NCBI GenBank assembly: GCA_020137815.1
Contig: CM035353.1
Location: 3,162,001-3,226,000 of the forward strand
DNA: 64,000 nt
Source of the DNA: Hormiphora californensis
Lineage: Eukaryota > Animalia > Ctenophora
Reading direction: 5' to 3'
The translations under genes and the position numbers were made by a program. The notes under the pieces were generated by a model that saw only the letters and a list, made by a program, of their open reading frames with translations, did no database searches and was not told the origin of the DNA. Below, piece by piece: positions 21,437 to 52,676 of this stretch. Position 1 is the first letter of the stretch. The number at the start of each line of letters is the position of its first letter.

Positions 21437-22928
<1,492 letters not shown>

Positions 22929-25257: not shown

Positions 25258-26744
25258 CTCACGCAGGTTCATAACATAACAATTCAGTAAGATATATATT
25301 ATGGAGCTAGTAAAATCAATTTAATTTTAATTAAATTGATTTTACTAGCTGCATAATATATATACTTCTTACTGATGATGTATTTGATTTAGTGAAATAA
25401 TTTTTCTCTTGAAAAAATCGCTCCTTTTTTGTTCCTTTGTGCAGCTTGGGTACAGTGTCCCCTCTCTTCTTGGGAGCGCGCGAGACAACATGAGAGAGAG
25501 ACAGCGCAGGACGATAGAAGAAAGAGGGGATACCATACCCAATTGTGCAGCTAGTACTAGTGAAATAAATTTGTGTCAGCCTATTCTTGTCCCCAGAAAA
25601 TGAACGTGTCTGATCAGTACCGCACAAGCCCATTATATACGATAATAGGGGTAGGGGGTAACCAATCTCAGCAGTCAGCGTATATACAATGAAGCAAGAA
25701 TATATTAGAGCGTTTCAGAAATAACTTCGTGTCCCGATATCTCCAAAAGTATAAAATATATCTACACGAAACCTTTTCTAGCATGTTATTTGAACTCTTG
25801 ACTACACACAACAATGGTCATTTTGAAAAATTTGATCAGGTGTGGCTATGGACGAACCCGGAAATGTAAGTTACTCAAATTGCCGCTGCACGGGGAAAAC
25901 GTGCATAGTACTGAAAGTTGAAACTGCTGTTCTTCTCAAAAGTTGGTTCTAAGGGATATCTTATTGCATTAAAATACTTGTTCATTAGACAATTCTATTT
26001 TGTTTAAGATGTAATAAAAGGTCCTAGCTTCATTCGTTGCTGAGCAATGGGCCTTTGAAAAATGTTGGCAAAATTTTGAAATATTCACTTCCGGGTCTCA
26101 CTGAAACATGTCAAAATGATCATTTCCCTTCAAATTTCAAGACAAGTTTTGTGGCGATTTGTTGCGTAACACGACGTGGCGATGGAGCATCAACATCTAA
26201 CTGTCATTTCTCTCACTTTGCATCAAGCATTATTTATCAGCCCTATTTACCAGCTGCTAGTGTCTCAATGAGCCTTTCTACAGTTCATTTAAATAATAAA
26301 TTGAAAAAGAATATCAATTTTTGACCAAAGTTTGGGAACAATAAATGAGTTTAGTGGCCAATTTTTAAAAACACTCAACCCCATAAATGGCAATATATAT
26401 CACCTCCAATTGATTCTAGAATTTCTAACCTATTTTATCTTAAATGATAGAGAATATAGGAGAGGCTTGGTTTACTTCCTCCCGTGCACTGTGATGGTTA
26501 ACTTGATAGTGTAGCGTGTATCGCATTATGATATTATGTCTTTGTTATATCAAGATATTGGTTGAAAGGCCCAGCTGTAGTGGTCTGATTAAATCGCTAC
26601 TATATAAGTCTTGTCTTTGACTACACATTTTTCACTGCTTAGCTGGAGATCTGTATGGTACGTGACCGTCAAGTCTCCTGAAGCTTTAGTTCATTTAAAC
26701 AGTGCCATCAGTGTACAGCTTGTACAGTTTCACCGACAATAACG

Positions 26745-26888: not shown

Positions 26889-29800
26889 ATGGCAGCAGCA
26901 GCAGTGGAGACGGTGGTCGGAGAGACTCAGCTTGTTCGCGATGAGATTAGCAGGGTAATAGGACTAACTCAAATTGTGCTAATGACACTTGGGATGGTCA
27001 TCAATATTGTCATTATAATTTGGTTTGCAGGTAAATAAATCAGTAGCTAGACAACTGGCAATTATGATTCAATGTTTTTGATTGCGCCTTTATTATTATA
27101 AGTGTTAGCTCTCCCTTGCCTTGCTTGATCATATATTTCAACATTTTCCGTAGTGACTAAAAAGTACAGAAAGAGTTACCATTTGGCGTATCTGAATCTG
27201 GCCGTTAGTGATACACTTATCGGTTTCAACGGTGCCCTCTTTGTTGGAAGAGGTTGGTGTTTACGGAGGGGTGATATTTGCTGGAGTTTTATAGATATAG
27301 AGATGGAGAAAGAGGTAGGGAGGGAGAGAGAGAGAGAGAGAGAGAAACAAAACGAGAGAAAGAGAGAGATATCTCACTATGATCATCACCCCCTGCAGCT
27401 ACTGCGTACGGTGTGGACGAATCCCTGGCCTGCTACATCCTAGGTATGTTATATATAATATGTTCCTAACCCCCTTCTAACCCCCTTATCATATAACAGG
27501 TACAATTGTCGGATCCATTTTGTTGTCAGCTAACTTTGCAGCAGTAGTACCAATTGCATACGATCGTCTTGTGGCCGTCATATTTCCAATCAGGTGAGGT
27601 GACTGGTGAGGTGAGGTGAAGCGATGTGAGGTGACTGGTGAGGTGACTGGTGAGGTGAGGTGAAGCGATGTGAGGTGACTGGTGAGGTGACTGGTGAGGT
27701 GAGGTGAAGCGATGTGAGGTGACTGGTGAGTGGTGACTGGTGTGAGGTGAGGTGACTGGTGTGAAGCGAGGTGAGGTGACTGGTGTGAGGTGACTGGTGA
27801 GTGGTGACTGGTGAAGCGATGTGAGGTGACTGGTGAGTGGTGTCTGGTGACTGGTGACTGGTGAGGTGAAGCGATGTGAGGTGAATGGTGAGGTGAATGA
27901 TTATACAGTTGGACCCCGATTTACCGGAACCCCGATCTTTACCGGGAGGAAAAACTTCCCCCGATTTAGTAAATTAACGGTGTATCACCCCGATTTACCG
28001 GGCAAAACCCTTTCCCCCGAGCATCCCGGTAAATCGGGGTCCGACTGTGATCTATACTTGGTAACGAAGTTACCCCTCCCTTGCCGGCGCGGCGTGCGAA
28101 GCACGCCAAACGAAGGCCGCGAAGCGGCCTGAGTAGGGGTAACAAACCCGCTTTGATTCACTTCAAAAATTAATAGCTCCTCAACCACTCAATGAAAATG
28201 CACCAAATTTTGGTATTCCCCACCAAATTGTCTGAAAATTATAATTCTGTACTCATATTTAAAAAATTATCCCCGGAACCTTGGTTTTGAAATCAGTTTT
28301 AGGTGTTAATGATGAAAAAAAATTTTGAAAAAGTAGGTCAGGTATGCTTAACATCATATCAAAGATCGTGGCAAAGTTTGAAGTTTCTATCTTGAAAGGT
28401 CTGGCCATCAAAATTAAAAAGGTCTTGAAGTTGAACCATTTGTACAAAACATGTTGTAACTCAGCTTCTACTTTGCCAAATTAAACCTGGTTTGCCCCCC
28501 TTATCCTCCCTTATTTGACGTTGCATGTTAAGGGGAGGAGGCACATAGGTCCGACGCTGAGTAATGACAGGAACACCTGGGGGTGGTTAACCACGATAGT
28601 CCTAACAAGACTGGCTGTATTTTATGTACGGTGGCAAACGTGGGCTAGAGTGTGTGGAACCACAGTATATGCACCATTCTGCCTTCTATAGGCTCAGTGG
28701 GTCAGAACTGTGTCAAATCATCCTCAATCACGTACTTCCCTACAGAAGGTTCCCATATACCTTTCTGCAAGGCTTGATTGAATATATTGTGGCAAAATGC
28801 TAGTGATCGCCACCAAGGGGTCACTACGGTCACCAGATGCTGTTTGAAATCTCTGCTAGTGTAGGGTCGGTATTGCACCGTTTTGTTTAATCTTATATGA
28901 TATTTAACGTATACCAGTAAAGGTTCAAAATCCGGCAGCTAGAGGCTAGCAACCTCTACTGTTGTATATCAATTGCTAAAGAAACGTCGAAAAGTAAATC
29001 TCGCTCCGAAAGGAAAGGTCGATCTCGGGCGACAAGAGCCGGTGAGCTCAGCATGACGGGCGCAGGGCAAAGCCGCGAGGACCCCTGCGTGCAGACGGGG
29101 ACAAAGAGATCGTCTCATTGTAACCGAGTTATTAGCTGTGCTATCACCGAAGTGAGCCCCGATTTATCTAAACAGAATCCGTACAACCTTGTAAAATACA
29201 GTTTTAAAATATCAACTTGGAATGTGCTCTCTCTGGAGAGTAGCTCATCGAAATTGTACGAACTAGCGAGGGTGACATCAGAGTATGGAACTGACGTTAT
29301 GACCTTGACAGAAACTCACCGGCCTGGAACTGGTGTGGTAGTGTTGGAGAACGGGAATTTGTTCATTAACTCGGGGAGAATGGATGGGATTCGGAGACAG
29401 GGTGTAGGAGTTGTCTTGTCTAAGAGGGTTAAGAACTCATTGATCTCATATACCCCTGTATCTGAGCGGGTGATGTGGCTGAGGCTCCACTCTAAACAGG
29501 TCAATGTGTCTGTTGTGGTGGCATATGCCCCTACCGAGGATGCGGAGGACAGTGTGAAGGATGGGTTTTACAATGAGGTAACTGGGGTATTGGATGGACT
29601 GCCGGGGCAAGATGTTGTATTCCTCACTGGGGACTTCAATGCTAGGGTAGGGAGTGACAGTGAATCAGTGTCCGGGGTTGTCGGGAAACACTCTTTACAC
29701 GCGGTTTCTAACAACAACGGGAAGCGTCTTGTTGACCTCTGTACACTGTATGGGCTGGTTATCGGTGGCTCCCTTTTTGAGCATCTTAATATTCATAAGG

Positions 29801-32800
29801 GGACCTGGAAATCACCGGATGGTCGGACCGTCACTCAAATTGACCATATCTGTGTGAGCTCTAGGTGGAAATCTTCCCTCCTTGATGTTCGGTCTTATCG
29901 TGGCGCTGATATTGGCTCAGACCACTATCTTGTGGGGGGTCGGTTTCGGCTTCGTCTTAGGGCTAATGGAAGGAGGAAGGGTGAAAGGGTGGCAGTGCCT
30001 GATTTGCAGAAGCTCCGAAATGGGAGTAAGATCGTAGAATACCAGGTTGCTCTCAAAAACCGGTTCGAAGAACTGGAGGATGGAGTAGATTTGGAATCTA
30101 GGTGGGATTTCTTCATGAACACCATCAGAGACACGTCTTTGGAAATTCTGGGGAAACGACCAGCCCAGAAGAGGCAGTGTCATCTGTCTGATACCACCAA
30201 GGATCTTATTAGCCAGAGAGCTGAAGCTAAGAGGAAGGGTGAAACAGCTAGTGAGGATTACGGCAGGTTAAGGAAGGTGGCAAAGAGGAGCAGTAGGGAG
30301 GACGAGCAGTTGTGGGCGGACAAACTAGCTGATGATTTGGAAGGTGCAGCAAGGCGTGGTAACCAGAGGGATGTTTGGCAGCTTACCAAACAGATCGCTG
30401 GTAAGGCGAATTCGAAGGGTGTTGCTGTCCGGGACAATGCGGGTAACCTCCTTTCCGAGGTCGACCAGCAGAGAGGAAGATGGGCGGAACACTTTTCGAC
30501 GCTTCTGAATCCCCAAGCATCTCCGGTTAATCTGGTGGATTTGGGGGAGCTTTCAGGGCGGCCTTGTTTTTCGGAGCTTGAAGATAGCGACGCTGCACCA
30601 ACAATCACTGAGATCAGCACCGCTCTCAAGCGTCTCAAGAACCACAAGTGTCCAGGACTAGACGGAGTTTCAAATGAGGAGCTGAAGTTTGGTAGTGCGG
30701 TGCTTGTGGGACCACTGGAGGCACTGTTTGGAGAGGTGTGGGAGTCTGAGAAGGTACCATCTGACTGGCTCAAGGGAGTTATTACCGTTCTCCCGAAAAA
30801 AGGAGACTCATCGGTATGTGGAAACAACCGCGGAATTACCCTTAGAGCCACCACCTCTAAGCTCTTTCAAATGGTACTTCTGGGCAGAATGGAGGATGGG
30901 CTCGAGAGACTTCTACGAGAAAACCAGTGTGGGTTTCGGAGGGGCCGATCCTGCATTGATCAGATTTTCTCACTGAGGATGGCCATCCACCAGGCTTCAG
31001 AGTATAACCTGCCCCTCTTTGTCAATTTTATTGACTTTAAGGCTGCTTTTGACTCGATTAACAGAGGGTTCATTTGGGCTGCGTTCAAGTACTATGGCCT
31101 CCCCGATAAATACATCAGAATCCTTAGGAGCTTCTTTGATGGGACAGTCAGCGCGGTTAGGTGGGCTGGTGGACTGTCGGATTGGTTCGAGGTTCTATCG
31201 GGCACAGGTCAGGGTGACATTCAGGGGCCTGTGGTGTTTAATGTCTGCCTGAACCTGGCCGTGGAGCTTAGTGAGGTGCATGGAAGTCCGTCCCGAGGGT
31301 TAGTACTGAGGCAGGAAGGAGACTCAGTAGAGACGGTACTTGATTGTGACTACGCTGACGACATGGCGGTCATGGATAGCACAGAGGCGGGGCTGCAGGA
31401 ATCTACTGACTTAATCTGCAAGTTTTCTGAGTATGCCGGGCTGAAGGTGAACACCAGGAAGACCGAGGCCATGGCTGTTGCTAAATCTAGTGTACAGCCT
31501 CCACCAGAAGTCAGTCTTACCATAGGGGACACAGAAATTAGTCAGGTCAGAGATTTCACCTACCTGGGATCGAAGATAAGTTACGATGGGAAACTGGATG
31601 GCGAACTTTCTTCTAGAATTGGGAAGGGATCAGGTGCATTCCGGTGCTTGGGGAAGGTCTGGAACAATCGTAACATCCTGGAGCGAACAAAAATTCGTAT
31701 TTATGAGGCTGCGATCCTGACCATCCTACTGTATGGGAGTGAGACCTGGAACACTACCAAGGCACAGATGCACCGTTTGGAGGTTTTCCACCAGACCTGT
31801 CTCCGCCGTATCCTTAAAATCAGGTGGTACAACAAAGTGAGCAATGTCAAGGTCTTGAAGATAGCGGGAATCAGTACAGTGCAGGGATACATCTCCTCGA
31901 ACCGGCTACGGTGGTTTGGTCATGTGTCCAGGATGCCAGAACATCGGATCCCCAAGATCTTCATGAACTGGGTCCCTAGGCATGGGAAGAGATCTAGAGG
32001 ACGACCTAGGAAGACTTGGCTGCAGTGTGTCCGTGAGGATGCCTGTGCTGTTTCAGGAGTTGATGATACCAATGAGGAGTTGATGGGGAAAGCACAAGAT
32101 CGTGACGAGTGGCGGCGATTTTCAAGAAGAGCGAGATATTCCGACGCGGGCCACTCTAACGATTGAGGAGACCCCTTCAAGTACAAGTAAGTAAGAAACA
32201 CTGAACTGCTAATCTATCCCTCCGAATACGGACGAAGTTTGAAACCGCCAGCTCTATTGGCCGCTCTGCAATACTTGTTTGTGTCAAAGAAATCAGGAAA
32301 GTAACGAGATTTGGTCTCGGTGTGGCCCTGTGCGCGGCTCAAACCCCTTAGCTAGAACTATGTAGTGTAGACTACAACTTTTCAGTGCTCAGTATAACGT
32401 TTTGGGCGCGCTATAAAAATAGGGCAAGCCCTTCTGATACCTCTAAACAGAGTGTGAGGTGTCTTCGATACCAAGATCTATACCTCCCCCCATATATCAC
32501 CCCCTAGATACAACGCGGCCTCACACAAGATAATTCTAAGGGGTATGATAGTAATCATATGGACCATGGCCATGGTGTTTTGGGCCCTCGGTGCTGTTCT
32601 CATCTTCATCAGAGACTATCCCGATGGAAGGGTGAGTAAACTCACCTCACCTCCACTCACCCATCTCCTCCACTCACCCATTTCCTCCACTCACTGTTGA
32701 TTTGATATATTGAATGGTGCTTTGCCGACGACCCCAAATATGGTAATTAAATTGATTGGTATGCGAGCAGTAAGCTCTTCTACTGACGGAGCCCGATTTA

Positions 32801-33634
32801 CTAGGATGCTCAGGGTGAAGGATCGTTCTGGTATAGATCGAGGCCCGACTGTAACTTTCATTTCAGGTCTGGTGGTGGTTCCCAGCTCGTTCTTCACACC
32901 AGGAACCGACCGAATTGGGAAATACTGGTCCCTGATTGGCTGATAACCAGTCACGTGACCTAAATAACAAGTTCTGATTGGTTGTTTACTTGTTTCGGTC
33001 GATTCCTGCTTCACACTCTTCTTCATTTCAGGTGCTTATCTACAACGAGGACGCTCGGCACTGCGAATGGAACTTCGATACATGGTTCCCATTGTTTATC
33101 ACTGTACAAGCAGTCATATTCATGTACCTGCCCCTCTTTTTCAATGTAGTCGCCTACACCATTATCATATTCAAACTGCGAACCCTACGATCCTCGAAAC
33201 GGTCCACGACAACCACTATGGTCACGATCCGGGCTATTATTCTATGCTTCCTGTTCTCCCTAACGTGGTTACCCGGTCAGATAGTCCGACTAATGATAGA
33301 CTCACAGTCAGATAACCATAATGAAATTATCAGGTTGGCTCTGTCTGTGCTCTATGCAAACTGTCTAATTGATCCTATAATGTACACTTGCTCGCCCAGA
33401 TCTATCATCTTGTGCATTAGAAGGTGTAGGGCTGGGGCAGAGGTAATCGGGGGGAGTGGGGCGACAGCTAGGAGGGCCAGCAGACCTGGCAGCGATCAGA
33501 CATCAAGGAACAGTGTCGTCAATACTGGTGTTATGATTCTCAGTGTTAGTGATGTGGCAGCAGCCGGGAAACGAGATGCCTTTACTCGATCTGCAGGGAA
33601 CATTTCTAATCTCCAAATTGTATCTGGGCTGTGA
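26889..33634 (+). CDS. Rhodopsin-class orphan GPCR 3 (6 coding exons)
   Basis: Exons 26889-27030, 27154-27252, 27399-27443, 27500-27593, 32508-32631, 33032-33634, all GT-AG with consistent phases. Motifs GMVIN, NLAVSD, YDRLVAVIFPIRY, TWLP, NCLIDPIMY. Confidence 0.92.
27594..27900 (+). repeat. GGTGAG-based minisatellite beginning at the GPCR3 intron-4 donor
   Basis: Units ggtgaggtgact / ggtgaagcgatgtga repeated over ~300 bp. Confidence 0.9.
28487..32195 (+). mobile_element. Full-length RTE-clade LINE
   Basis: ~570-bp 5' UTR, a single intact ORF, and a very short 3' UTR ending caagtacaagtaagtaag (RTE-type tail). Confidence 0.9.
29053..32166 (+). CDS. RTE endonuclease/reverse transcriptase, 1037 aa, uninterrupted
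   Basis: TWNV, GVG, AYAPT, GDFNA, QIDH, SDH (EN); NRGITL, FIDFKAAFDS, QGD, YADD, FTYLGS (RT); RLRWFGHV and RGRPRKTW (RTE C-terminus). Confidence 0.96.
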   Translation: MTGAGQSREDPCVQTGTKRSSHCNRVISCAITEVSPDLSKQNPYNLVKYSFKISTWNVLSLESSSSKLYELARVTSEYGTDVMTLTETHRPGTGVVVLENGNLFINSGRMDGIRRQGVGVVLSKRVKNSLISYTPVSERVMWLRLHSKQVNVSVVVAYAPTEDAEDSVKDGFYNEVTGVLDGLPGQDVVFLTGDFNARVGSDSESVSGVVGKHSLHAVSNNNGKRLVDLCTLYGLVIGGSLFEHLNIHKGTWKSPDGRTVTQIDHICVSSRWKSSLLDVRSYRGADIGSDHYLVGGRFRLRLRANGRRKGERVAVPDLQKLRNGSKIVEYQVALKNRFEELEDGVDLESRWDFFMNTIRDTSLEILGKRPAQKRQCHLSDTTKDLISQRAEAKRKGETASEDYGRLRKVAKRSSREDEQLWADKLADDLEGAARRGNQRDVWQLTKQIAGKANSKGVAVRDNAGNLLSEVDQQRGRWAEHFSTLLNPQASPVNLVDLGELSGRPCFSELEDSDAAPTITEISTALKRLKNHKCPGLDGVSNEELKFGSAVLVGPLEALFGEVWESEKVPSDWLKGVITVLPKKGDSSVCGNNRGITLRATTSKLFQMVLLGRMEDGLERLLRENQCGFRRGRSCIDQIFSLRMAIHQASEYNLPLFVNFIDFKAAFDSINRGFIWAAFKYYGLPDKYIRILRSFFDGTVSAVRWAGGLSDWFEVLSGTGQGDIQGPVVFNVCLNLAVELSEVHGSPSRGLVLRQEGDSVETVLDCDYADDMAVMDSTEAGLQESTDLICKFSEYAGLKVNTRKTEAMAVAKSSVQPPPEVSLTIGDTEISQVRDFTYLGSKISYDGKLDGELSSRIGKGSGAFRCLGKVWNNRNILERTKIRIYEAAILTILLYGSETWNTTKAQMHRLEVFHQTCLRRILKIRWYNKVSNVKVLKIAGISTVQGYISSNRLRWFGHVSRMPEHRIPKIFMNWVPRHGKRSRGRPRKTWLQCVREDACAVSGVDDTNEELMGKAQDRDEWRRFSRRARYSDAGHSND
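32900..33008. mobile_element. 109-bp hAT-type MITE (CAGGAACCGACCGAA TIR, 8-bp TSD)
   Basis: TSD cttcacac on both sides. Confidence 0.9.
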
Positions 33635-35235: not shown

Positions 35236-38200
35236 CCAGAAGTTCACACATTTCTCCTTCGGGAAGAGTGCCCCCATCAGGAGCTCATAAGATCGGGCAA
35301 CCTATAGAGAGATAATGGGTTAACTGAGATTAATTATATACAAGGTGGCCCATAAGTTATGATCGCGGGGGACTTAATGGGTTAACTTTCTACTTCTTGG
35401 AGAGGGGAACCAATAAGGTTGCCTGCTTGGGGTGGCGCTCGAGCTATGCTGCAGAGAAATCTGTACCAAAAATGGACCGTCGCTGAACGCCATTCGTAAT
35501 AGGAGATCAGCACCATGGCATCGTTCCGACCTACTTTTTTAAACTTTTATATACTTATTTTGTATATTACAGTCGGACGTCGGTCCCCCGGCTGGATAAA
35601 TTTCCCTCAAAACGTTTTTAACGCTTGGTCAACTTGATAAAGAGGCATGATTCGATGGGGATCACGTATCGGTTCGTTAGCGGGAGCCGGGAGGACATGT
35701 GAAAAAGGCGTGAGAGCCAAAATAAGTTTCCGGCGTGCAAAAAGTGGCAGTAAAGACTCAATTTTTGCCGTTTTTGAGCCGTTTTCGAGCCTTTCCAGCC
35801 ACTTTTTTCGAAATTTTGAGATCGAAAAACACATCCAATTTCCATGAAACTTTGGAATTGACATAGAAAATACCCAAAAAACAGTTTAGCAAAGTCTCAG
35901 CACCAGCAAAAATTCCTTGAACTGGTAGTTTTGATGCCAAAAAGACACTTCTCGGGGTGCTAGATCTCCAAAACCCCCAGGAACCTTGAATGAGGGTATG
36001 GAATAGTCCAAGTATGAAGTTTCATGACCTAATCTTGTCAACTTTTTTTCTGGGTGAAGCACAACGCTTGTAAAGATCCAAAATGAACACCCTGTATGTA
36101 TTTTAAATTTTTCATTGCTAATCAGCAATGATTATGTCATCGATATAACAGTTGGAGGTGCCTTGGCAGGCACTGTTGGTAAAGCCCGACACAATTGGTT
36201 AATAAATCTACACTAATCTCTATTGACCAGGGACCACCCAGAGAGCTAAACAGCTTTCTGGGTGGTCCCTTCAATATTAGACTCACAAAGCTGTCAAGTT
36301 GGCTCTTCTAAGTTCTCAGCGCTATAATCAATAAACCTGGGTATAAACCTGTTCCGTCGGTATTTGCCCCCCCCCCCCCCGCCCCGCCCGAAGAGAACTA
36401 CGGGAGGGGGGCCGGGGGGGGGGGGGGGGGTCCGACTGAATATATATTTTATACAATTGAATCTCCGTGTCAGTGATGTAGCCTATATAATATTATCTAC
36501 TCACATAACGATAGTGGATGTTGTCATTCAGGCCAATGAATTCCACCTCATTATAGTTCTCCAGACGGGCATTCTGAGAGAGGATAGATATATTACTAGT
36601 TGAGAATGAGAAAGTAATAGGACTTTAAAGATCTAAGCGCCCCTTTTCTTCTCTCTTTTATAAAAGGAGCCTAAAATGTTAGCTTCCTACAAAATAAAGG
36701 CTCCTTTCCTTTTGTGGACTCAACTCTCAGTATTACCTTGGTAACGAAGTAACCCTTCCCTTGCCAGCGCACGAAGGTCGCGAGACGACCTGCGCTAGAG
36801 GGGTTTGGTTTCGTAACCAAAGTAAATTACCTGTAGATCGTGGTAACTTCCAATAACAAATAGAGATATCATTCTGTTCTCCTCATCATCCTCCTGGAGA
36901 AGATCCTCACCCTCAGGGATATGGGAGAGCGTCGCTTGGGATCCTGGGGAACGTAATTATATATTAGGGGGGGGGGTGACAAATGGTGATGGTGACACCC
37001 TCTGGGATATGGGAGAGCGTCGCTTGGGATCCTGTAGAATATATAATTTTTAGTACCACGGGGCGAGAAGATCCTCACCCTCTGGGATATGGGAGAGCGT
37101 CGCTTGGGATCCTGGGGGAGTATAATATATTAGGGGGGGGGGGGGTAATCATGGTGATGATCTCTGGAGAAGATCCTCACCCTCTGGGATATGGGAGAGC
37201 GTCGCTTGGGATCCTGTAGAATATATTATTATTAGTACCACGGGGCGAGAAGATCCTCACCCTCTGGGATATGGGAGAGCGTCGCTTGGGATCCTGGGAG
37301 AGTAGAATAATTAGGGGGGGGGGGGGGGTAATCATGGTGACACCCTCTAGGATATGGGTGATGATGACACCCTCTGGGATATGGGAGAGCGTCGCTTGGG
37401 ATCCTGGGGGAGTAGAATATATATTAGCTAATTAGTACCACCACGGGGCGAGCTGGTTTACCCAGTACCATCAATCTGATGAAATCATATTATACCCACA
37501 TGGCATGTGGGGTATTGTCTAGGAACCGACCGAATCAGGAAATACTGGTCCCTGATTGGCTGATAACCAGTCACGTGACCTAAATAACGAGTTCTGATTG
37601 GTTGTTTACTTGTTTCGGTCGGTTCCTGGTATTATCACTCACCGGTACCCGGGAAGAGGTTAGCTGAACTCATTGTCATTGTCTCCTTCAACTTAGTCAT
37701 ACCACGAAACAAAATCTTCTGGAGGTGGTGATTCTTTGTCTTGCCAATGTGATATGCTGTCGTTTTGCAGTTCGCTTGCTGAAAAAGGCATCGCTGTGTG
37801 ACACAGGGAAGTGTTTACTCTTAGTTATAGGGTTTGGGGCCCTCGCCATCTATCCATCTAATTCTCGAGAACATCTAAACTCCCCGTCCACTTTGTATTG
37901 GCCGCGAGTAACCACTTTGGTGGTTACGAAGTCAAGGGCCACCATTCCGTTCTCTGTCACACATGTGATTGGGATAATCAGTTTAAGAGTCACGGCGCAT
38001 CTTACCAACCAACCAACCAATTAACCACCAATAATATCAAATAGTAGTTGAAAACAGATTATTGTCACGAAAATTGTATATAGCTTTTGTCGAGGGGCAG
38101 AGCTAGAGAACTAAATTTACCAGTTGTTTAATAGCGTGTACGAGGATGTTGAGGTAGTTTTCTGTGTGCTCAGATCTGAACCCTGTATCCGGTAGATCGG

Positions 38201-41200
38201 TGGAGGCGCGGTTGTGGGCTGCCACCCTGAGCTTCCAGTTGACCGTTTCTAACCGTCCTTTTTTAACTATCGCTGCTGACCTGAGGATTGAGGGCGGGAA
38301 TTAGGGGGGGGGGAGCGGGAATTGGGTTGATTAGGGGCGGGAATTGGGGGGGGGGGGGGGGGGTGTGAATTGGGTGGATTAGGGGCGGGAATTGGGTGGA
38401 TTAGGGGCGGGAATTGGATGGATTAGGGGCGGGAATTGGGTGGATTAGGGGCGGGAATTGGGTGGATTAGGGGCGGGAATTGGGTGGATTAGGGGCGGGA
38501 ATTGGGTGGATTAGGGGCGGGAATTGGGTGGATTAGGGGCGGGAATTGGGTGGATTAGGGGCGGGAATTGGATGGATTAGGGGCGGGAATTGGGTAGATT
38601 AGGGGCGGGGTAATGGAGGTGTGAAAGATCCCGGAGGGGGTACCTCATTAGTATGGTGGCGGGTTGTCGGGGATGTTTCCACGTCATAACAGGAAACCTA
38701 GATCTGTCAAACTGCCTCGCTACATCGTGCAGTGAGATGTCCGTGGCGAGAGATGGAACAACGAGGATGGCAGGGTAACTTCTACAAAGCTGTGGGGGGA
38801 TATGTATTAGGAACGATTGGGAACAATTGGGAACAGTTGGGAATAATTGGGAATAATTGGGAATAATTGGGAATAATTGGGAATAATTGGGAATAATTGG
38901 GAATAATTTCAGTAGAACAGTTACAAGTCTACAGCTGGAAAATGGGGGCTAAAAAAGTTTTAAAAAATCTAAAAAAAGGTAAAAAGGCCATCGACCAAAA
39001 TTAGGGTATTTTTTTGGGAAAAAAGTCTACACTCTACATACCGTGTAATCTTTGTTGAAGGCCGTCAACCTCCAGGCATTCTTGCTCGAGCTCTTCCCTA
39101 TGTCATTAAATCCCCCAAAACCTAGCCGTGCGAAATCCTCACAATACGTATACTCGTTCCTACACCTGCGATGGGATTACGGTTATTAGTAGACGGGTAG
39201 CTAAACTTTAGGGAATTGACATACAATTTCAAGCGGCTCTGTTGAAAGTAGAGAATTTCCTAAGTTATACATACCTAATTATCGGCCTCCTCTTGGGACG
39301 TTTCATTCTGAAGCTCCCGTGGAAGAAACTAGCTGCAGTAAGCCCAGACGCCAAGGAGATGACATCTGAGTGTTCGTCTCCCAGACCCCCGTTACTGGTT
39401 AATGATTGCATAGACGCAGTGTGAGTCAGCACACCAGGGGGCGGTGCCCGCTGCTGGTCTTTTGATCCCGGTGATTTGGGACCATGATGGTTCTCGTGAT
39501 CATCATTGATCTTCTTACTGCTCTTCATTGATGAGCTGTGCTTCTGGGGGAGCATCATCATACTCTTCCTATAGCTCTTCTTGGTAGCAGCACTGGCGGG
39601 AACAGCACTGGCAGGAATACCCCCTGACCCTCCCCCGGCACCAGTTGGAACACCCCCACCACCCGCCACACCAGGCACTACACCCGCCAGGCTGTCGTGG
39701 AGGGGCTCCGGGTCCGGTCGGACAAAGGCAAACGTTTGGACGATCTTGCTGACTGTTCGTAACCGAACTAATTTCTTCTTGAACAGTTCGATGCCATCAC
39801 TGCTGCGCTCCTTGAAGAAGCCAATACGGAATATTTGGCAGGTAAGGGAGTAGATGGAGAGGTGGTGCTCCACGTTGAGGCAGTCCTCGTCATCATCACC
39901 CTCCGGATCTTGGTCTGGGTCATCGTTATCCATGGAATAGATTGAACCCACCGGAATACACCTGTAGGAGGTAATAAGTTAGAGGTAATTAGTGGGAGGA
40001 TAGTACCACGGAGGTAATTAGTTAATTATATCTTTCCTCCAAAATTGTTATGAGTCGTTACGTAGGTTCTCGAGAATGTATATCATATAAATTCTTGGCC
40101 AATTTAAGCTGCCTACTCTAGAAATCCGGTCTTTCCCTGACCTCTCCCTCCCTTTCTCACCTGTAAATTATTGTATTTTCATCATCACTATTTAGTGGGA
40201 AGCCGATGAAGATGACCCTGTAGTTGGTGAGATAGAGTACTCCCTCTGCTGGTAGGATCTGTGGCTGCACACGAGCCTAAAAATAGAATTATTGTGAACG
40301 GATTTGTTTGTTTGTTTGTGATTGCCGCGTCTGGAGGATGACCTGCCCTAAAGTAGTAGAGTTGTTAGCACTAAATTATGCGGCATTTTACTCATGAGGC
40401 AACATACAGAAGCTTAAATTATGGGTATCATCTTGTCTCTGATTTTGAAATCCCATTCCCATCCCCTACACGACGGTAAACCATTATGTATGGGAACCCA
40501 TATTTGAAGAGACTTCCTCTCTGAGATTAGGGATCGGTTGATTGTTTATAAGTCGCATTATATACGGCATAACCAGTGAATAAATCTTGATTTCTCCTTC
40601 CGGCGACGACGAATTGATAGACGGGTATTTTATTGTATGTAAAAGAAAGCAACCAATTTCGATGCTCAGTATCAGCATCAGGCTCAAATTAATTTATTCA
40701 AAGAAGTGAAGAGTTTGAAAATTATGCTAAGGAACTAAATTGATTGCGTTCTTCTACAATAAAATACCCGTCTATCAAATCGTCCAGCCGGAAAGAGAAA
40801 TCAAGACTGACTCCCATTCTAGTTAACTAGTGGGGGAAGGCCCTTCCCGGAAGGGTCGCCGCAACGAGAAGGGACACAAGTAGCAACCCATATCATTGAA
40901 ACCAACTCCCACCTACCCGTCTACCCACCGAAATACGCCCTGAACACACATGACCCCCTTACCTCTGCCTGCATGGGCATCATATAAACATGGACAGGGT
41001 CCACCTGCATCTTCTCCATGTGCACCATTGGGGGGACCTCCATCCGGGCCTTGAGGAAGGTTGTCTTTTTGACGGGAGGAAGTTTCGCGGCCAACTGCGA
41101 TACCTCTGATATTGTGTCGTAATGCATGCTCAACATCTCGGGTACCTTATAAGATTTGATTTGATTTGATAAGAGCGGTTACCATGGGCGTGAACCCCTG

Positions 41201-42139
41201 TTGGGGACCCTCCGCACTTAGTGATACCAGCACCGCTAATGATGGCCGTGAGGTACTAATATAAGATAAACAAGGATATAAAGTGGTACCAAATCTGTAC
41301 CGAACTTGTTTATACACCTCAAGGGAAATTATCATTGTCTGGAATAGTAAATAAGAGCATTGATCAAACTGTAATACCCTACCCCATAAGGCATAAATCA
41401 AACAAACGGTTTCGGTGACTCACACAGCTGCGGATTCTGTCGATTTCTGAATAGTGCTTCACATCGCATTTCCCCACAATGTGGTCGATAAATCTCTCTA
41501 CAAGCTCAATGATGTCCCTTCTCTTGAACGACTGAAAGGGTTTACAGGGTTATTTTGTTGGATATATTGGGTAAATAAGATGATCATTTGAGGGGAAATC
41601 TATATGATGAAATCTTTCTTATATCTATTTTATCGTTGAATTGTATTTTTGAAGTTTGAAACGATGACTAAACTGAGCAAAGGGGTTCGGGGTTTCATAC
41701 CCGACGAAGATGCGGTGGGAAATAGTTAGTGGTTGCCGTTGAGGTTGAATGAGCGAGGGTGAAAGTGAGTTTACTCTGAAAAGTGTTTTGAAGTGAAATA
41801 TGGAGTGTTTTGAAGTGTTTTGAAGTGAAATATATGGACATTTTTGAGATTGAGTTTGAGATTTACAATCAGAAGATATAACACCCTAATAATCAGAATC
41901 ATGTAGACAATTTACCCTTTTAGGCTCCTTGGTAACGTGTGTATCGTACACATCAATAATCTCGTCTTCTTCCTCGAGCGGGACTAGCAGCCAAATAATC
42001 CGGCTACAAAAATGCCGCACCTGACCAATTATCGTCGTCTCCTCCTGCTCTTTTACCTCCTTGTGCACTTCTTCGTCCCACGAGGGGCAGGACAACATCT
42101 GAGAGAGTGAGAGAGGGGAGAGAGATGGGAGAGAAAGAA

Positions 42140-42171
<32 letters not shown>

Positions 42172-42186
42172 AGAGCAGAGATGAGA

Positions 42187-42243
<57 letters not shown>

Positions 42244-42260
42244 CCGCCTGGGGGGGAGAG

Positions 42261-42318
<58 letters not shown>

Positions 42319-42913
42319 GAGGTAGAGAGAGAAACATATCCAGTGAGATAATATATTTCAGTGAACATTATAGTTACCCGTAAAGCTGAATGGATAAGGG
42401 CACGCTGGGATATTTCTGACATGACTCTGCACATGTTTACTGTCCTCCGTGTACCTAAATAACAGCGTGTGTTAACTCTATGTATGTTGAGGTTCTATCC
42501 ATCAATCAGTGTCAATGTGTGTGATCCAATGCCTGAGAGTGTGTGAGTGCGCCGCGCAGAGCCTAACTTTCCAATACTGACACAAGGAGCTTTCATACGA
42601 TGCGTCTCTGCGCGCACTCCGTGAAACAGCAGGTTTTGTCAGACCTGTCAAGTGCGGCACAACTTTTAAATTCCTCTCTTTGCTGCTGCTGCTGCACCAC
42701 TTTATCATATGTGAATGAACCTGGAACGTAATATATAGCTCAGCCCCCTCTCTCTCCACTCTGCGAGGGACTGTCCCGGTACTATGCAAAAACTCGTGCT
42801 GCTCAGTCATAAATTGCAGAACCGCAGGACTTAATGACAAAGCTATTGGGTAGGAGGGGCGGAGAGAGAGAGAGAGCGAGAGAGAGAGAGAGAGAGAGAG
42901 GACGTAGATTGGA

Positions 42914-42944
<31 letters not shown>

Positions 42945-43723
42945 TAGAGATAGAGAGCGGGCAGAGAGGAGAGAGAGAGCTAGATCGAGAGAGGAGACGA
43001 GAGAGGAGCGAGAGTACAGAGAGAGAGAAGAGAAGAGAGAAGATAGGATGACCGAGGTGTAGATACCTGTACTGATCGAAACGTTCAGTGGCTAATGTAG
43101 CCTGACCAGTGCATTTCCCCATTTGTTTGTTTTGTTACACAGCGAGAGGCGATGTGGGAGAGAGAGAGAGAGAGAGAGTGTTCGTGTGCAAGACATCCGA
43201 AGGACGTTGGTGTGTACCGTGTAGTGTGTAACCCACATACACACAGTGCAGCGTGCAGTACTTTTTTGTTATATCGGGGGTGAAGGGAGAGAAAGGGAGG
43301 CCAAACAAGGCCTTCTTTTCTCCTTCTCCCTTTATCTCCCTCTCTCTCTTTGTACCTCTACACCGCTAGCACTCTCTCTTTCTATGTTTTTATGTCTCTT
43401 TCCCTCTCTGTATCTCTCTCACCCTGGAAGCCTCTCAACACGCCATTACAATGTGGAATGTGACTGAGAAAGTGCCCCCGCTGTGCTATTCCATACTTTA
43501 ATCTTCAGTCACATAACTCTCTCTCCTTCTCTCACTCACCTCTATATCTCCCCCCTCTCTCACCCAAAAAAAGAAGGTGAATGAGAGGACCTCTAAAGTC
43601 CGACCTGGTACTACACTAACCCATTATTGATGATACTCTCATCGTTGCATCGTTGTAACGTCAGCTTGCCCTCTTTCTCCATTGTCTCGAACACCTCCAG
43701 TATGTGTTGCTGAAAGAAAGAGA

Positions 43724-43785
<62 letters not shown>

Positions 43786-43788
43786 TAG

Positions 43789-43843
<55 letters not shown>

Positions 43844-46599
43844 GAGTGAGAGAGAGTGTGTGAGTGTGTATTACCGATAATTGTTGGGCACCTAAAACAA
43901 TTAGCAAGTACGCCACCAACCGGAAGGGTTAACGCTTCCAGAAGGAATTAGAAACAAATCGTCTTCAAAATAATAATTGAACCATACATTGACAAGTTAG
44001 CACATTACAAGAGGTATTATTTAAAACCAATGTATGTACTATGATCTAATAATTGTCTAGGAAGCAACTTTCCGAAGATAACCCTACAATACAAGTATGC
44101 ACTTGAGAGGGGTTACACAGTACACACAGAGGGAAGATCTGTATTTCATCATCTGTGAACAGGAAAGTGGCAATTGATTTTGTTCTAGATACTCGATCCA
44201 GCTAGCAATATAGTCTGAACAAACTTCCTTCACACTCCTGACTAACCTGAACTACCTACGCAGCCACATTTCACTGCGCCCCGCATGTAAAGGGGGGGGG
44301 GGGCAGGGGTTAGAACATTATATATGACAAGACTAACCTGGACAACACAGTAAAACGCACGCTCCCAAAATGCCAGGCTCTGCCAAATGTTGTGAGTCTG
44401 TACAATTGTATACATAAACTGGACAGTGCCGTAGCCAAGTTGCTGAGGAGGGGCGGGAGTTATACATTATTTATATGGGAATATAGTCGTTATATTTTAA
44501 TACAGTCGGACCCCGATTTACCGGGATGCTCGGGGGAAAGGGTTTTGCCCGGTAAATCGGGGTCCCCGGTATATCGGGGCAAAATACCGTCAATTTCCTA
44601 TATCAGGGGAAGTTTATCCTCCCGGTAAATCGGGGTTCCGGTAAATCGGGGCCCGGTAAATCGGGGTCTGACTGTATGTATTAGTGCGTAAATAATACAT
44701 TGAGTAGACTTGCTACTTGCTAGAGCACAAAAACCGACCGAATCAGGAAATACTGGTCCCTTATTGGCTGATAATCAGTCACGTGACCTAAATAACGAGT
44801 TCTGATTGGTTATTTACTTGTTTCGGTCGGTTCCTGATATGTAGCTTACCCGACAGAATTTGTCCGTGAGAGGCATGATTTTAATAGCGAAGTCACCAGC
44901 ATCCACACCTCGATCATTCTGGGAAAACGATTTAAATTTAAAATATTTAAAATTATATTTAAAATGTTTAAATTTAAAATCATTTTCTTCTGTTCTGCTG
45001 AGAGAGAAAAGTATTTAAATGTAAACATATATTATATTCGCTCAATTTCAATCTCGTGTTTCTCTTGTTTGGTCGACCGTAGCCGTATGTGGTGGTGGTG
45101 GTGGTACAGATAGGTTATAGCGTGCCAAACTCTGCCCGTTAGGGCAGAACGACATTGCAACCTCGTCATAGCGTCTGTCATCGTGTTGTGGTCAGTTGAT
45201 ATCATTGCATTCATATTGTCAGTCAGTCATTGTACTTGCAAGACACTTACGCAGCCCCCACGGTTAAAGGTCGGTTGCACTCTTCGCATCTCCGCCCCGT
45301 GAGGACATTGCAGTTATCTTGCGAATAAGCAAAAAGACAAGTTAGGGGGCACATTTTCAAGCTTTGGTGGCTGTGCAGGTAGGCCTGTTCGTTTGTTTGT
45401 TACGACGACGGTCCGTCGAGTGGACACTTCTCAAGCTTGGGTCTGGGGTAGTCTGTCTATAGTAGCTCTAATTAAATTATTGATTGGTAAGGTTTACTCC
45501 GGAATCATTATCAATGGTACACAATAGATGAACAGACAATACAGACAGATGAACTTACAGCTTTTTGATGTATGATTGGTACCGTGATGTTGTTGGTGAT
45601 CAGATGAGAGGTGTACCATTTCCACTTCCAGTAGAGATCAAGATGAACAAAAATGATCAAATACAAATAAGAGGTGGGACAGATTGTAGCGTCCCTAGAA
45701 TGTGTACGATGTTCTATAGGACAAGACGGGTGGAACAGATAAGAACAATTGTGAGTTGTTACACGCGATAAGCGACTTAGTGAGACCACAGTTTTGAAGA
45801 TAGAAACTTGAAATTTTGGGAATCATTAGGGGATATAGAGGAGCATTGGCACAAAGAGTATGTTTTGAGACAGAGCAATATTATGGACGTGACCTGAGTA
45901 CAAGAAAACGAGCAGGTATTGAGTGCGTTAGAAATCAGATATTAGAGGTACTGTGTTGAAAGATACAGGAAAGGAGCACTATTTGACAGAATGACTGAAC
46001 CAGACTAGGCGATGCGGTTGTAAATTGATAGATTTAGGATTAAAGAGAGACTTAGACGGGTGTATGTCAGTGTAACAGAGCATTCAAAATGAAACATATA
46101 TGAAACTGCAAATGTATGAACTCCCGTAGCCGTATGTGTGATTAAATATAATCTCGAGAATTATATTTGAACTCTCCACCTGAATTTATTTCTTTCTCCT
46201 TCAGCTCAGTCTGAGGAATTCTCACTTTCTTTCTATTACTCTCTCGTTATCTGTAGAATTCTCACTTCCTTTCTATTACTTTCTCGTTCTCGGTAGAATT
46301 CTCACTTCCTTTCTATCACTCTCTCGTTCTCGGTAGAATTCTCACTTCCTTTCTATAACTCTCTCGTTCTCTGTAGAATTCTCACTTCCTTTCTATAACT
46401 CTCTCGTTCTCTGTAGAATTCTCACTTCCTTTCTATAACTCTCTCGTTCAATTTCCAATCCATACCAGCCATAATGGCACGCCCAGGCACTCTGTAGATT
46501 ATAGATAGATACCACCCATAACGCCAAATAGATTGCTTACAAACCAACCACCATGATGAAGTGAAGTTACACTCGGACCACCACCCCCACATTAGAAAA

Positions 46600-47589: not shown

Positions 47590-50500
47590 TGAGAAAGAGA
47601 GAGAGAAAGATAGAGAAAGATAGAGAAAGATAGAGACTGAAAAATATATCTGTACCACTGACAAGGGTGCCTCATTACTCTCACACTTCTCAGTTGTAAA
47701 CAACAAGATCTCAGATATTCCGCATTTAACAGGTGATACATATATTACAACATGCGGAAAGGATTTTTCACACAAAGAATCGGGTTAGAACATTTAACCA
47801 AATTATACCTCAAGACTGGTGTTAATTAGGACGGACAAAATGTCAAACTGGGCCGGTGTCAGGGATGTTTTGTTGTTTGGTATGGCCGTCAGCTCCGCCA
47901 CAAAACTGTTTCGTATCGTTGACTCGTTTAGCGCTACGATTGCTTTATTTTGCAGCTGCGAAGGGGCAATAGAGGATACTATTATGTACAGGAATAGGCA
48001 TACACAAGATTATTAGGGGGTATCATGTATAATCCCGGATAGCTCGGATAGCCCGGATATCAATCGTTAATCAATCGAACTAAATTTTAGTAGGGAGTTG
48101 GAAAAAAAGGAGGATATTCTTCAAAATTTAAAACACAATATTGTACCTTTTTCGCTAGGAATATCTGTTTATTGAACATTGCCGTTAGACAGTTCTGTAA
48201 ATCGTTGTTCATTTTCCGTAATTTCTGTTTTGTCCGGACTGTCCGGGCTGGCTTTATTTCGACAGGTACCGCCCGGTCCCGAATTATCGACTTCGGCTCT
48301 TGTGATACTGCGGAGATGAATTGATCAGTCAAAAACGGTGCACGGATTTGTTTTCCGCTCCTAACAAATACTAACTTGTGATGTGCACCCCAAAAGATAT
48401 AGATATCACATACGCACGAGTTTGGGGTGACAACTTCAAAAAAGCAAACTTTAGGGGTACATTAAATTGTTTATTGTTATTCGTACCAGGAACCGACCAA
48501 ATCAGGAAATACTGGTCCCTGATTGGCTGATAACCAGTCACGTGAACTAAATAACGAGTTCTGATTGGTTGTTTACTTGTTTCGGTCGGTTCCTGATTCG
48601 TACCTGGTGGAGTGGGTGGTTGTGTGGCATCATTCTCAGCCATCATCTCTGCTATCCGATAATCCCGGAGAAAGGGAAACTTCAGGTCGTCTCTGAAATC
48701 ATCATGGGTTCATTACAATATGAAGGAGCCGACCACCGGAAACTTGGTTGGTGACATTGGAAATGAGCGGGGGTTGCCAGAGATATGGAGTTGTATCTAG
48801 TGGGTATATATATGTTGGAAGTGATGATTTAGTGTGAGATGTTGTTGCTGGTTATATATTATGGTATCAGGCAGTAATTTAACTTCTCAGCGACACAGCT
48901 AGATCTACCGCTGACAGCCAGACAGGTTCCTGTTATATCAGGTTGTACAAGCTGTCACGAAATGTTTAGACAACATTTTTCAAACAAGATACATAATATA
49001 TCTTCACCTTTCTTGAAATCTTTCCTTCTAGATCTTATTCTATACTAAGACAAGCATAACTTTCTCTTTTGCACTAGATTATATTCGCTGATTTATTGCC
49101 TCGTGGCTAGTGCAAGACATAAATATCTTAGAAAACAAAAGATACTATCAGAGAAACCTCATACATGGAGATACCGAGGGCGGTAAATTTTAAGAAGAGA
49201 AAGGTAGAAGCGGCGAATTTAGCGAAAAAGAAAGATACCCCATAAGTACATATCGTACAACATACAGACAAACAGAGATACACATTTAATGGGACAAACA
49301 TAGTATTCAAACTAACACATTAATGGATACATATACTAATAACCCTTGAAGGTATAATACTCAGCTTGAGAATAGTAACACATTACAAACACTTCAGCTG
49401 CTATAGGGACCAACTAATGAAATCTTACAAACTGAGAAAGCCGTTGAAGTAGAGCACCGTTGACCCGATTCCCATACGCTCTCCATCACCAATGAATCAC
49501 CCCCACCCGGTACAAATCGCCGCAGCGTGCGTCTTAATCAACTCCTCTAGGGTATGACACCTCCATTGGCAACCCCCCTCTCTTTGCACGTTGGATACTA
49601 CTCATGGCCGTCCACGCATTGCAATTATATAAGGAAATTTCAGATTACAAGATTTGGTACAAGATTTTACAACTATTTCGTCTCAAATAAATAATACAAC
49701 ATATTAAAGTTGGGCGAGAGAGAAGAAGATATAAGAGTTAAATTAGGAAAACAAGACCCAGACAGGACCGACATACTGCACCGACTCAGTGACCAAAATA
49801 TCGAGTTGTATGGTTTTTTTACTTGTGGGGGCCGGTTTCCTATCCTTTATTTTATTATCCCTTGTCGGGGGTGTGTTTACGGTTTGTACGGCTTTTCCCC
49901 GTCTCTTTTTTTAGCAGTTTCCCTGTTAGTCTCGACATCTCGGGGGAGCCCGAAAAGAACCCCGTTATACATAATTTTTGGGGAATTAGGGAAATTTAGG
50001 GGAAGGGTTTTTTTTTCCCCCATATGGAAATTAACATTTCCCCCGATTTATTGGGAACCCCTTTAGGGGAAAGAGTTTTTCCCCCGGGGGCCCAAAGGGG
50101 GTCGGGATTTATTGTCCAAAGTGGATATTTTACTTTAAACAAAATAACAAATTTTTCGGGGGTTGTAACTTTTTCGGCGGTCCTCCATGTTTTTAGCTTG
50201 GGGAAGATGGATATTATAGTGTACAAGAACTAGATAGTACGGGTGTGTGTGTATGTGACATATCTTTCAACGTAGCTATTATCCTCTCTCTCGGCGGGGC
50301 GTCTGTTGTAGAACTAATCAGGGCAGGGGAAAGAGAGGGGAGAGAGAAGAAGGAGAGAGAGAGGGGAAAGAAGAGAGAAAGAGAGAGAGGAGAAAGAGGG
50401 GAGGGAGAGGGAGAGAGAGAAGAGAAGAGAGGAGAGGGGGGGAGGGGAGGGGGGAGAGAGAAGAGGGCGGGAGAGAGAGAAAAAAGAGAGGGGGGGGAGA

Positions 50501-52676
50501 AAAGAGAGAAGGGGGGGAGAGACGGAAGAGGAGAGAGGGGAAAAAATGTGTGTTTTTAGAAGCTAAGAAATTACATCTGTCATAATATATGACTTTAATA
50601 AGTTGCTTTTCCGTCTTCTAAGCTTCACTAAAGGTGTACCTTGCTCACTACTGAGCAGGATTTTATTTAAAGGTTCCAACTGCACGGTTAAAAACCCTTT
50701 CTTCCGACTATCCCGGTAAAGCGGGGTCCGACCGCATGCCATCTAGTTGGGGGGCACATGTGAGTGACAGTAAGCTACTACCCAGGTAGCGTAATCAATG
50801 TATCTTTCCAGTGAATGGTGCGAGTGTGTAAGAAGTGGGGCGCCCTGGGACAATGAGAAAGAGGAGAGAGAGAGAGGGGGGGGGGGGGGTAGGGAAAGAG
50901 AAAAAAAATAAAGAGAAAAAAATAAGCTATTTTGAATGAGGCATGTATCCGATTTCATTGCGGCTTACTTTTTAGGGCTACATGTTCATTATAAAAACAT
51001 GCCATACATTGCACAAATAATCATTCCAAATTGGTTTCTTTTACTCTTTTTGAAGGAATAGACAAACCCAATACTACTTCGCACTGAGATGTACCCCTAA
51101 TGTTCACATCGCCACCATCCCTGACCAGACGTATTGCCTAACTAACACCTAATACTATTACGGACCTGGTCCTGACTGGCGTTCACTCGGGAGGTTTATC
51201 GCTCACACTCTTTACAAGTTCATCAAACAACGTGGCAACTCTGAACGGTGGTCCGTACTCGTCTACGAAATGAGACCAGGACATGGTCTCAAAGAGTTTC
51301 AGTACGCTTTGCTCTTTCTGAGGGGGGACAGATTAGAGGGTTAGTAGGAGGAGATTACTTTAACCCTTCCGTTTACGTTTTGTATAACTTTTGCATACCC
51401 CTTCGAATTCTTTGCCGGGCACAGGTTACATGATCTACTAGGAAGATAAATACGGCGGTATCATTAAACACTCTATTAACTGGTGACGTAATAGCATTAT
51501 TTAGGGGGTGTTATAGGGCATGCACACGATATATATGTAGGACATGTTTTATTTATCTTAGAGAATACCTTGATAGTTGATACATGCTGTATAATTTAGT
51601 TCTCTCTCGTATGTCGTTCAGCTAGCTTTCTCTCTCTCTCTCTCTCTGTCTCGCTATCTCTCTCTCTATCTCTCTATCTCACACTCTCAGATAAGAAGGT
51701 ATGAATTACAATGGTCATTTAACGGCTAAATTTACCAAATCTATGATCTCCCACAGGTGGGTATGAGTGTGAGTGTGTGTGTATAATTGCTTGGAGTCGG
51801 AGATCAAAGAAGAATTTTGTCATGGTCTGGGGGATAATCACTTCAAAAATAGAATGGAATCAAATACAACACAGAAACAAGAATGTCAAGAATTAGCTGA
51901 AATTCTTTCTTCGACAACTGCAGCTTCGCGTAAAAATCGATCAACTAAATTTTTTCCCAGCATAAGTGTGTTGACTGTCGAGTAGGTCGAAACTGTGACC
52001 ACACGTAATTAAATAGTAGTTTGAATGAACAACACAAAATACAAATATGAAATATTGTAATGATGCGTGTAGTAAAAGACTTATAGAAAATCCCTCTGCA
52101 ACCCCTTCCTATTCCGACCCCTTCCCCTCTAGATTGTAACTAGGAACCGACCGAATCAGGAAATACTGGTCCCTGATTGGCTGATAACCAGTCACGTGAC
52201 CTAAATAACGAGTTATGATTGGCTGTTTACTTGCTTCGGTCGGTTCCTGATTGTAACTCTCTGTAAAATTATCATGTACCTGAAATGATCGGATTTCCAG
52301 GAAACGTTGTTCGTTAAAGACAATAACAGGGCGGGGATGGGTCCTCACCACCATTAGGCAACATCTGTACTGGGCCAAGAGCCAGGCAAAAAACTGCATA
52401 AAGACCTGGGAGAAATTATTGATATTGATTATATAATTTGCCTTGCTCAGGCGGGTGCCCGACAAATGTTAAGGTTAGAGTTAGAACAAACCAAGAGCGG
52501 GAGGGGAGGGTACGTACCCTCGCTTACCGGTATACCGGTACTCAGCATTGATCTAGTTTCCATCTTACCGCTCTAATTTCTTTGTCCTGAACAACTGGCG
52601 GGGAGATGGTGCGAGGAACTGGAGCGTAGGCCAGATCATTTACCAGGTACTTCGGATCCAGGATTAGCTGAGAATG

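Follow-up and report, generated by a model that had tools for sequence, protein, structure and literature searches.

The window analysed here, a 64-kb stretch of Hormiphora californensis DNA, carries a repeated insertion of ~290 bases that, with its flanks, spans about 40511-40820 and lies within an intron (40277-40962, minus strand, recognised by GT/AG borders and open exons) of an SBF/myotubularin-related gene at ~39270-44470 (-). This host gene shows an SBF2 domain (E 1.3e-11 at 44245-44466) and a GRAM match below the cut-off (E 3.4e-4 at 40163-40276), and is on the same strand as the spliced-leader (SL) copy that heads the insertion. Read along the minus strand, the order is an SL exon (40722-40683), a single C, a hammerhead-like motif, an arm that runs to 40574, and a tail that runs to ~40523, while 5' of the SL there is a 14-nt linker followed by an inverted second copy. 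The bases quoted in a first-pass annotation of this DNA are present where it placed them, and on the left, loose ends and depth carry the repeat ~60 nt beyond the start that it gave (40585), to ~40523. The insertion is a real, multi-copy, SL-headed repeat built like the insertion of a Penelope-like element (PLE), and it likely belongs to the PLEs, with no partner ORF seen: no PLE ORF occurs within the ~290-bp insertion or the 64-kb window, the insertion lacks the PLE-type RT and GIY-YIG ORF of an autonomous PLE, and both RT ORFs of the window carry AP-type endonuclease domains. A 64-codon open frame (40487-40679, -) has its ATG in the hammerhead core and continues through arm and tail; it runs across positions where the two arms differ by indels and may be due to chance. 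The ORF of an anole PLE also begins at stem II (PMC11167929).

Inverted arms, tail, and flanks

The pLTR-like arm body (40574-40650, -), 3' of the predicted cut, is multi-copy and aligns with a second, inverted copy on the other side (40737-40808, +), which is 5'-truncated, begins within GAAA, and has no tail. The diverged inverted copy described in the first-pass annotation is thus genuine: the arms are 82-85% complementary, and the hairpin has z = -15, with 0/200 shuffles as stable. The 5'-truncated copy adjoins the 5' end of the first, head to head, across the 14-nt linker (40723-40736; defined from the sequence and of single-copy depth). In sequencing runs X3 and X5 the right arm also occurs in a variant that is 8 nt longer and pairs with more of the left arm. 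The tail occurs at one end only, is 51 nt long here (40523-40573, -), and measures ~39 nt in copies without a 12-nt stretch; depth and loose ends at 40523 and 40567 show that it recurs at other loci, and it is not found in the right arm. An AATAAA noted earlier is indeed present, though a role as 3'-end signal is not supported: it sits inside the arm with ~110 more element bases after it and no poly(A).

Flanking the insertion are two putative 12-bp copies of a target-site duplication (left, 40511-40522; right, 40809-40820) that are identical at 9 of 12 positions, or 10 of 12 with the variant at 40813 in X3 and X5. Such a match is uncommon under a fixed-register null (117/62900) but not under a free-register one (373/1500), and it counts as weak; no empty site was seen. 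The arm ends show no TA or 8-bp duplication, and the insertion does not have the symmetric termini, fixed interior, and superfamily-type target-site duplication of a MITE or foldback element. Hairpins are common in the window, which holds 13 other foldbacks or inverted repeats (1026-1219, 1226-1448, 1715-2192, 10922-11046, 13126-13470, 15792-16028, 19985-20090, 21475-22900, 23964-25206, 25284-25375, 36221-36276, 59388-59750, and 62235-62372), none of them with an SL or hammerhead-like match.

The spliced-leader exon

The SL-like exon (40683-40722, -) is full-length and decayed, and the resemblance noted in the first-pass annotation stands up to alignment: 35 of 43 columns agree with the SL exon of metagenome contig L016 (five substitutions, one 3-nt gap), with a local alignment score of 53 against a maximum of 38 among 100 shuffled SLs and a best score of 32 in the window minus the element. 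That SL is the H. californensis leader printed in PMC8527503, a source that also reports 718 genomic SL copies in this species. Similarity to the real SL of the species is borne out as well by loose ends in the runs of this organism, which give 26/26 letters of the canonical SL. As had been noted, the exon lacks a GT donor, the next bases being CC, while the true SL genes in L016 continue with GT. The sequence 3' of the exon is no closer to the SL gene intron than expected, with 383 of 1000 shuffles scoring as well, so that the GT donor and SL intron which follow the exon in an SL RNA gene are both lacking. Because the SL match is far above shuffles but the downstream sequence is unlike the SL intron, the exon is, judged by its sequence, an orphan SL exon and not an SL gene. 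In the adjoining hammerhead-like motif, the greater part of the helix I 5' strand is supplied by the three bases at the end of this exon.

A gapped SL motif scan of metagenome contigs gave 28 loci, of which 11 carry the exact pleurobrachiid SL; the other 17 were dropped as chance matches in which the canonical SL middle is absent. One of the 11, L016, is a true SL gene array, with a 778-bp tandem unit, a GT donor, and a 5S rRNA gene in the same orientation (SL RNA gene unit and 5S rRNA features at 263-381, 695-735, 1041-1159, and 1473-1513).

A hammerhead-like motif with a deviant core

The SL ends one base before the core of a minimal type-I hammerhead-like motif (40647-40685, -) and is fused to it without a donor, as the first-pass annotation had proposed. 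On the minus strand, helix I pairs 40685-40682 with 40650-40647, the core C3-G8 occupies 40681-40676, position 9 is a C (40675) followed by an extra U (40674), stem II extends over 40673-40661 with the closing pair G10.1-C11.1, GAAA lies at 40660-40657, and U16.1 is at 40652, which places the predicted cut at 40651|40650. A relaxed descriptor, written after the sequence was seen, in which position 9 is free and stem II may hold one mismatch, matched a single site in the 64-kb window, at -40681, against 0.05 expected per shuffled window (60 shuffles). A9 is a conserved hammerhead core base. The deviant core (CUGAUGC) pointed out earlier is confirmed: a strict A9 descriptor has no match in the window, and the locus lacks an intact CUGANGA...GAAA...UH core, position 9 being C. 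A literature search found no paper on an A9C hammerhead. A search of the Rfam models, in line with the check proposed for the hammerhead likeness, gave no hammerhead match in 38000-43000 or 40630-40730; what it did return, one match to a generic plant miRNA hairpin and two below threshold that we attribute to chance, we set aside.

The features listed for PLE minimal hammerheads in PMC4209133 are an extra base between 9 and 10.1, a G10.1-C11.1 pair, a short helix I, and a palindromic 15.2-16.2. The motif has the first three, and the 15.2-16.2 palindrome is perfect only in some copies, including one high-depth variant. For the locus copy, folding puts the hammerhead fold ~10 kcal/mol above the minimum-energy fold; the favoured fold buries the core, and the pair probability of G10.1-C11.1 is 0.0002.

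A dispersed family in the sequencing runs

Five DNA runs of the organism from two studies were available, X1-X3 from one sample that may be the source of the window and X5-X6 from another. Depth and loose ends in these runs answer the question whether the arm is single-copy: it is multi-copy. The summed contig depth over the SL-hairpin junction, which is not a copy number, is 25-56x that of the locus-spanning contig in 5/5 DNA runs, and single junction contigs reach up to 6-7x that depth. In X1, five contigs of 67-435 nt, some of which may be alleles, cross the junction besides that of the window itself. Loose ends show the full SL, a 5'-truncated SL, or a doubled head-to-head SL at the same junction (X1, X2, X6); one locus has a 12-nt SL end joined to a second, inverted SL, and one 5'-truncated-SL copy is joined to unique flank with no inverted arm within 255 letters. 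All junction-crossing copies listed carry the SL at the same base, including one with a clearly diverged arm, and among the loose ends listed (14 of 15) none shows an unspliced form, in which a natural acceptor would stand in place of the SL.

Five head-to-head joints with other centres, each with 20-30 letters per side, were found in X3 and none in X5; these joints could be deletion derivatives or alleles. Two of the five, in which the right arm starts at 40746 and 40748, have the predicted cut site as their centre, a hint of self-cleavage; the two may represent one locus or the product of 2-nt microhomology.

Stem II is restored at 40670 in nearly all copies (8, 9, and 10 contigs in X1, X2, and X6), and two diverged copies have A at position 17 with U16.1 and G1.1-C1.2 kept. 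Since single-contig differences near contig ends do not appear in the tables, position 9 is not directly readable, and we turned to counts of unlisted differences. Among the contigs listed (24 of 40), minus 4 from the locus of the window, each of the 20 non-window contigs differs in one or more unlisted positions, and for the three with the fewest the number is exactly one. In a 7-fold collapsed contig the unlisted difference falls within 40672-40682 if the SL is canonical, and C9 is the only non-consensus core base in that interval; a 3-nt slip observed in X2 and X3 also agrees with a run of triplets, which the sequence contains only if position 9 is A. From these counts, this placement, and the slip, we infer that A9 is quite probably retained in the family, C9 being confined to this locus. 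An earlier reading of the missing 40675 row as absence of A9 from the family was rejected, as no non-window contig has that base far enough from its end for a difference to appear in the tables.

In run X10, which we guess to be RNA, three contigs of 31-32 nt hold the SL and only 4-6 next bases, as ordinary SL-spliced mRNAs might, and runs X7 and X9 gave no contigs on the element; these results do not speak for or against its transcription. A junction 22-mer had no match in metagenome_contigs, an arm 21-mer and an SL 29-mer had none in viral_contigs, and the SL 29-mer had none in genome_contigs.

SL-headed LINE-like contigs and other repeats

Among the 11 exact-SL loci, host mRNAs or mRNA-like sequences account for three: L004 (cysteine protease), L009 (proteasome subunit), and L017 (unnamed). 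Four others (L006, L007, L010, and L028) have a common layout, in which the SL is followed by a leader of 145-190 nt and an ORF of 413-431 aa containing CCHC knuckles, and the ORF is overlapped by a second frame opening with an AP-endonuclease-like motif; in L007, for example, the SL is at 8-48 and the ORF at 211-1497, with 36 homologues of ORF1. L014 resembles these four. We take all five to be LINE-like from their recognisable motifs. Pfam support for their frames is below cut-off, Pfam has no curated match for 7/7 ORF1-like proteins, and a BLASTP comparison of the L006 ORF2 start with a LINE of the window was not significant. The LINE-like nature of L011 and L024 is unproven, and atlas matches of L007 and L011 were to unnamed clusters only. 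Upstream of the SL, the five LINE-like contigs have 7-352 nt of differing non-SL sequence, and part of the L014 flank resembles window 4805-4866, two facts which suggest that these contigs may be genomic copies. They are probably SL-headed LINE families in an animal, to judge from their sequences, and SL-headed retroelements look general in these animals.

Several other observations may be recorded here. L011 and L014 have a second acceptor-like hexamer ending in AG directly after the SL, and L011 has a short hairpin before GAAA (55-150) that failed the hammerhead descriptor. The window contains two LINEs, at 5631-9228 (+) and 28921-32166 (+), with long open ORFs, AP endonuclease, and RT, the former also with RNase H in a shifted frame; both are without an SL. 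A ~120-bp dispersed repeat has seven window copies that are 90-98% identical (16364-16427, 32889-33019, 37514-37640, 44732-44846, 48476-48605, 52133-52260, and 59885-60005), and three related rhodopsin-family receptor exons (317-1021, 18407-19084, and 32978-33634, +) are probably a tandem GPCR cluster.

Origin of the SL-headed copies

The inverted 5'-truncated copy and the 30-40-bp one-sided tail make up the PLE signature (PMC8557442, PMC3846280), and in vitro work on an anole PLE (PMC11167929) describes extension of both target strands from two internal RNA starts that delimit the tail, with uncleaved RNA as the main template. The anatomy is thus PLE-like rather than MITE-like, as the first-pass annotation had it, and the point where the SL is attached is the helix I 5' strand. 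The 3' ends here are 100 and 151 nt from stem II. Considering the PLE signature and the similar start distances, the repeat probably stems from a PLE-type RNA that was SL trans-spliced at helix I and copied twice into one target by a PLE enzyme acting in trans. The locus is one decayed copy of a dispersed non-coding family with the host SL at its head, and we regard it as probable that it is a non-autonomous Penelope-type retrocopy of an SL trans-spliced RNA.

The events would run as follows. A PLE pseudo-LTR would be transcribed, and its RNA would contain a 3' splice site where the 5' strand of helix I begins to form the hammerhead; this acceptor, without an upstream donor, would receive the SL, giving a capped SL-hammerhead RNA in which the last bases of the SL would complete helix I. 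A PLE RT/GIY-YIG protein, acting in trans, would nick both target strands, and reverse transcription would begin at two internal sites ~100 and ~150 nt downstream of stem II, generating the tail. The two cDNAs would stop differently, here at the cap and at GAAA, and, once joined head to head, would be flanked by short target duplications. Copies with an SL would have to derive from RNA that had escaped cleavage, since a cut would take away both SL and core.

Other origins have to be weighed against this one. The SL might have been joined only once to a PLE-type master, by trans-splicing or by an RT template switch, and then inherited without further trans-splicing; such a capture, which we consider unlikely, would fit the SL sitting at the same base in all junction-crossing copies listed and the lack of an unspliced precursor among the loose ends listed (14 of 15), but a neutral SL should drift with the body, whereas the clearly diverged arm keeps its SL at the junction and other loci carry an SL identical to the present-day one (26/26 letters). 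A template switch, moreover, would not be expected to fall exactly at the exon 3' end. At the other extreme, a variant or decayed SL RNA gene, though it would account for the full-length exon and find a place among the 718 reported copies, is largely refuted by the absent donor, by downstream sequence unlike the SL gene intron, and by the real gene lying in a 778-bp tandem unit with 5S rRNA, and we give it next to no credence.

Two further alternatives invoke other kinds of mobile element. Long inverted arms, the abundance of foldbacks in the window, and a CAGTG-like motif at the start of the arm ends, of a kind typical of certain DNA transposons, would suit a foldback or MITE with an SL fragment captured in its loop, and the C9 core without an Rfam match would then be a hammerhead likeness due to chance. 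We think this decidedly improbable: the ends are asymmetric, with a repeated 39-51-nt tail on one side, the centres vary among loci, some truncated-SL copies stand on unique flank without an inverted arm in 255 letters, TA or 8-bp duplications are missing, and hammerhead-like sites are rare in shuffled windows (0.05 each). A LINE-mobilised SINE or a processed pseudogene of an SL-spliced host RNA would be favoured by the two LINEs in the window and by the SL-headed LINE-like contigs; yet the 3' end has neither a poly(A) nor a simple repeat, and two defined 3' ends (with and without the tail) and a head-to-head duplicated 3' segment are PLE features, so that we judge this origin very unlikely.

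Comparison with known systems

In the endonuclease-bearing PLEs (Penelope/Poseidon; PMC3846280, PMC8557442, and PMC11167929), we find in common with the present family a head-to-head 5'-truncated copy, a one-sided tail, and, if the weak 12-bp match is one, a short target-site duplication, and the distances are comparable, the hammerhead-like motif here being ~100-150 nt upstream of the 3' ends and the first anole start at 111-118 nt. In contrast to those elements, the 5' end of the family is the host spliced leader and there is no ORF; and while PLEs are known for keeping introns, the copies here would record spliceosomal processing. In the D. virilis Penelope, the intron ends at the 5' strand of helix I (PMC4209133), so that in both cases the splice junction is at helix I and the upstream exon supplies part of the helix, but here that exon would come from the SL RNA in trans and the spliced form is found in DNA. 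Naiad-clade PLEs have been reported in ctenophores, but they lack canonical hammerheads.

The SL-relict retrogenes of dinoflagellates (Slamovits and Keeling 2008, as summarised in PMC3229502) likewise have genomic SL exons heading reverse-transcribed RNAs, and a possible re-use of the AG of the SL as acceptor is common to both, whereas the present host is an animal, what the SL heads is the non-coding end of a retroelement and not a host gene, and no tandem relict SLs were seen. In Hydra, ~30% of TE long reads carry the SL, which indicates that TE RNAs are trans-spliced in an SL animal; the passage concerned (PMC12220107) deals with RNA only, not with genomic copies, PLEs, or ribozymes. The metazoan non-LTR retrozymes (10.64898/2026.07.22.740005) resemble the family, as interpreted here, in being non-autonomous, PLE-linked, and equipped with a type-I hammerhead, but they form tandem arrays with at least two hammerhead units, whereas the present insertion is solo and inverted and has an SL at its head. 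The label of retrozyme given in the first-pass annotation therefore does not fit, there being no tandem units, one motif, an inverted arrangement, and no second copy in the window. A literature search, with most subscription papers outside its scope, found no publication on an SL joined to a PLE or a hammerhead.

Implications

A more tentative extension, which we hold to be possible at best, is a self-renewing retroelement dependent on trans-splicing. The final AG of a genomic SL would serve as the next acceptor, so that read-through host RNA would be trimmed and re-capped at the element 5' end without a promoter of its own, and completion of helix I by the SL would act as a ribozyme assembly switch; a large part of the 718 loci would in that case be PLE-type and LINE copies headed by an SL. 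Genomic SL copies taken as false shared first exons mislead gene annotation (PMC8527503), and our results suggest that in ctenophores many of the SL copies in the genome head retroelements and are not SL genes.

Whether antisense or unspliced sense RNA is the PLE template was left open in the Discussion of PMC3846280. Because the spliceosome can add an SL only to sense RNA, genomic PLE-type copies headed by an SL would testify to a template that was sense, processed, and uncleaved. If the preferred reading of a Penelope-type retrocopy of SL trans-spliced RNA is true, PLE-type elements can copy from processed sense-strand RNA, and the family would mark each cDNA 5' stop (cap, inside the SL, or cut site), so that two-strand priming and in vivo cleavage may become countable.
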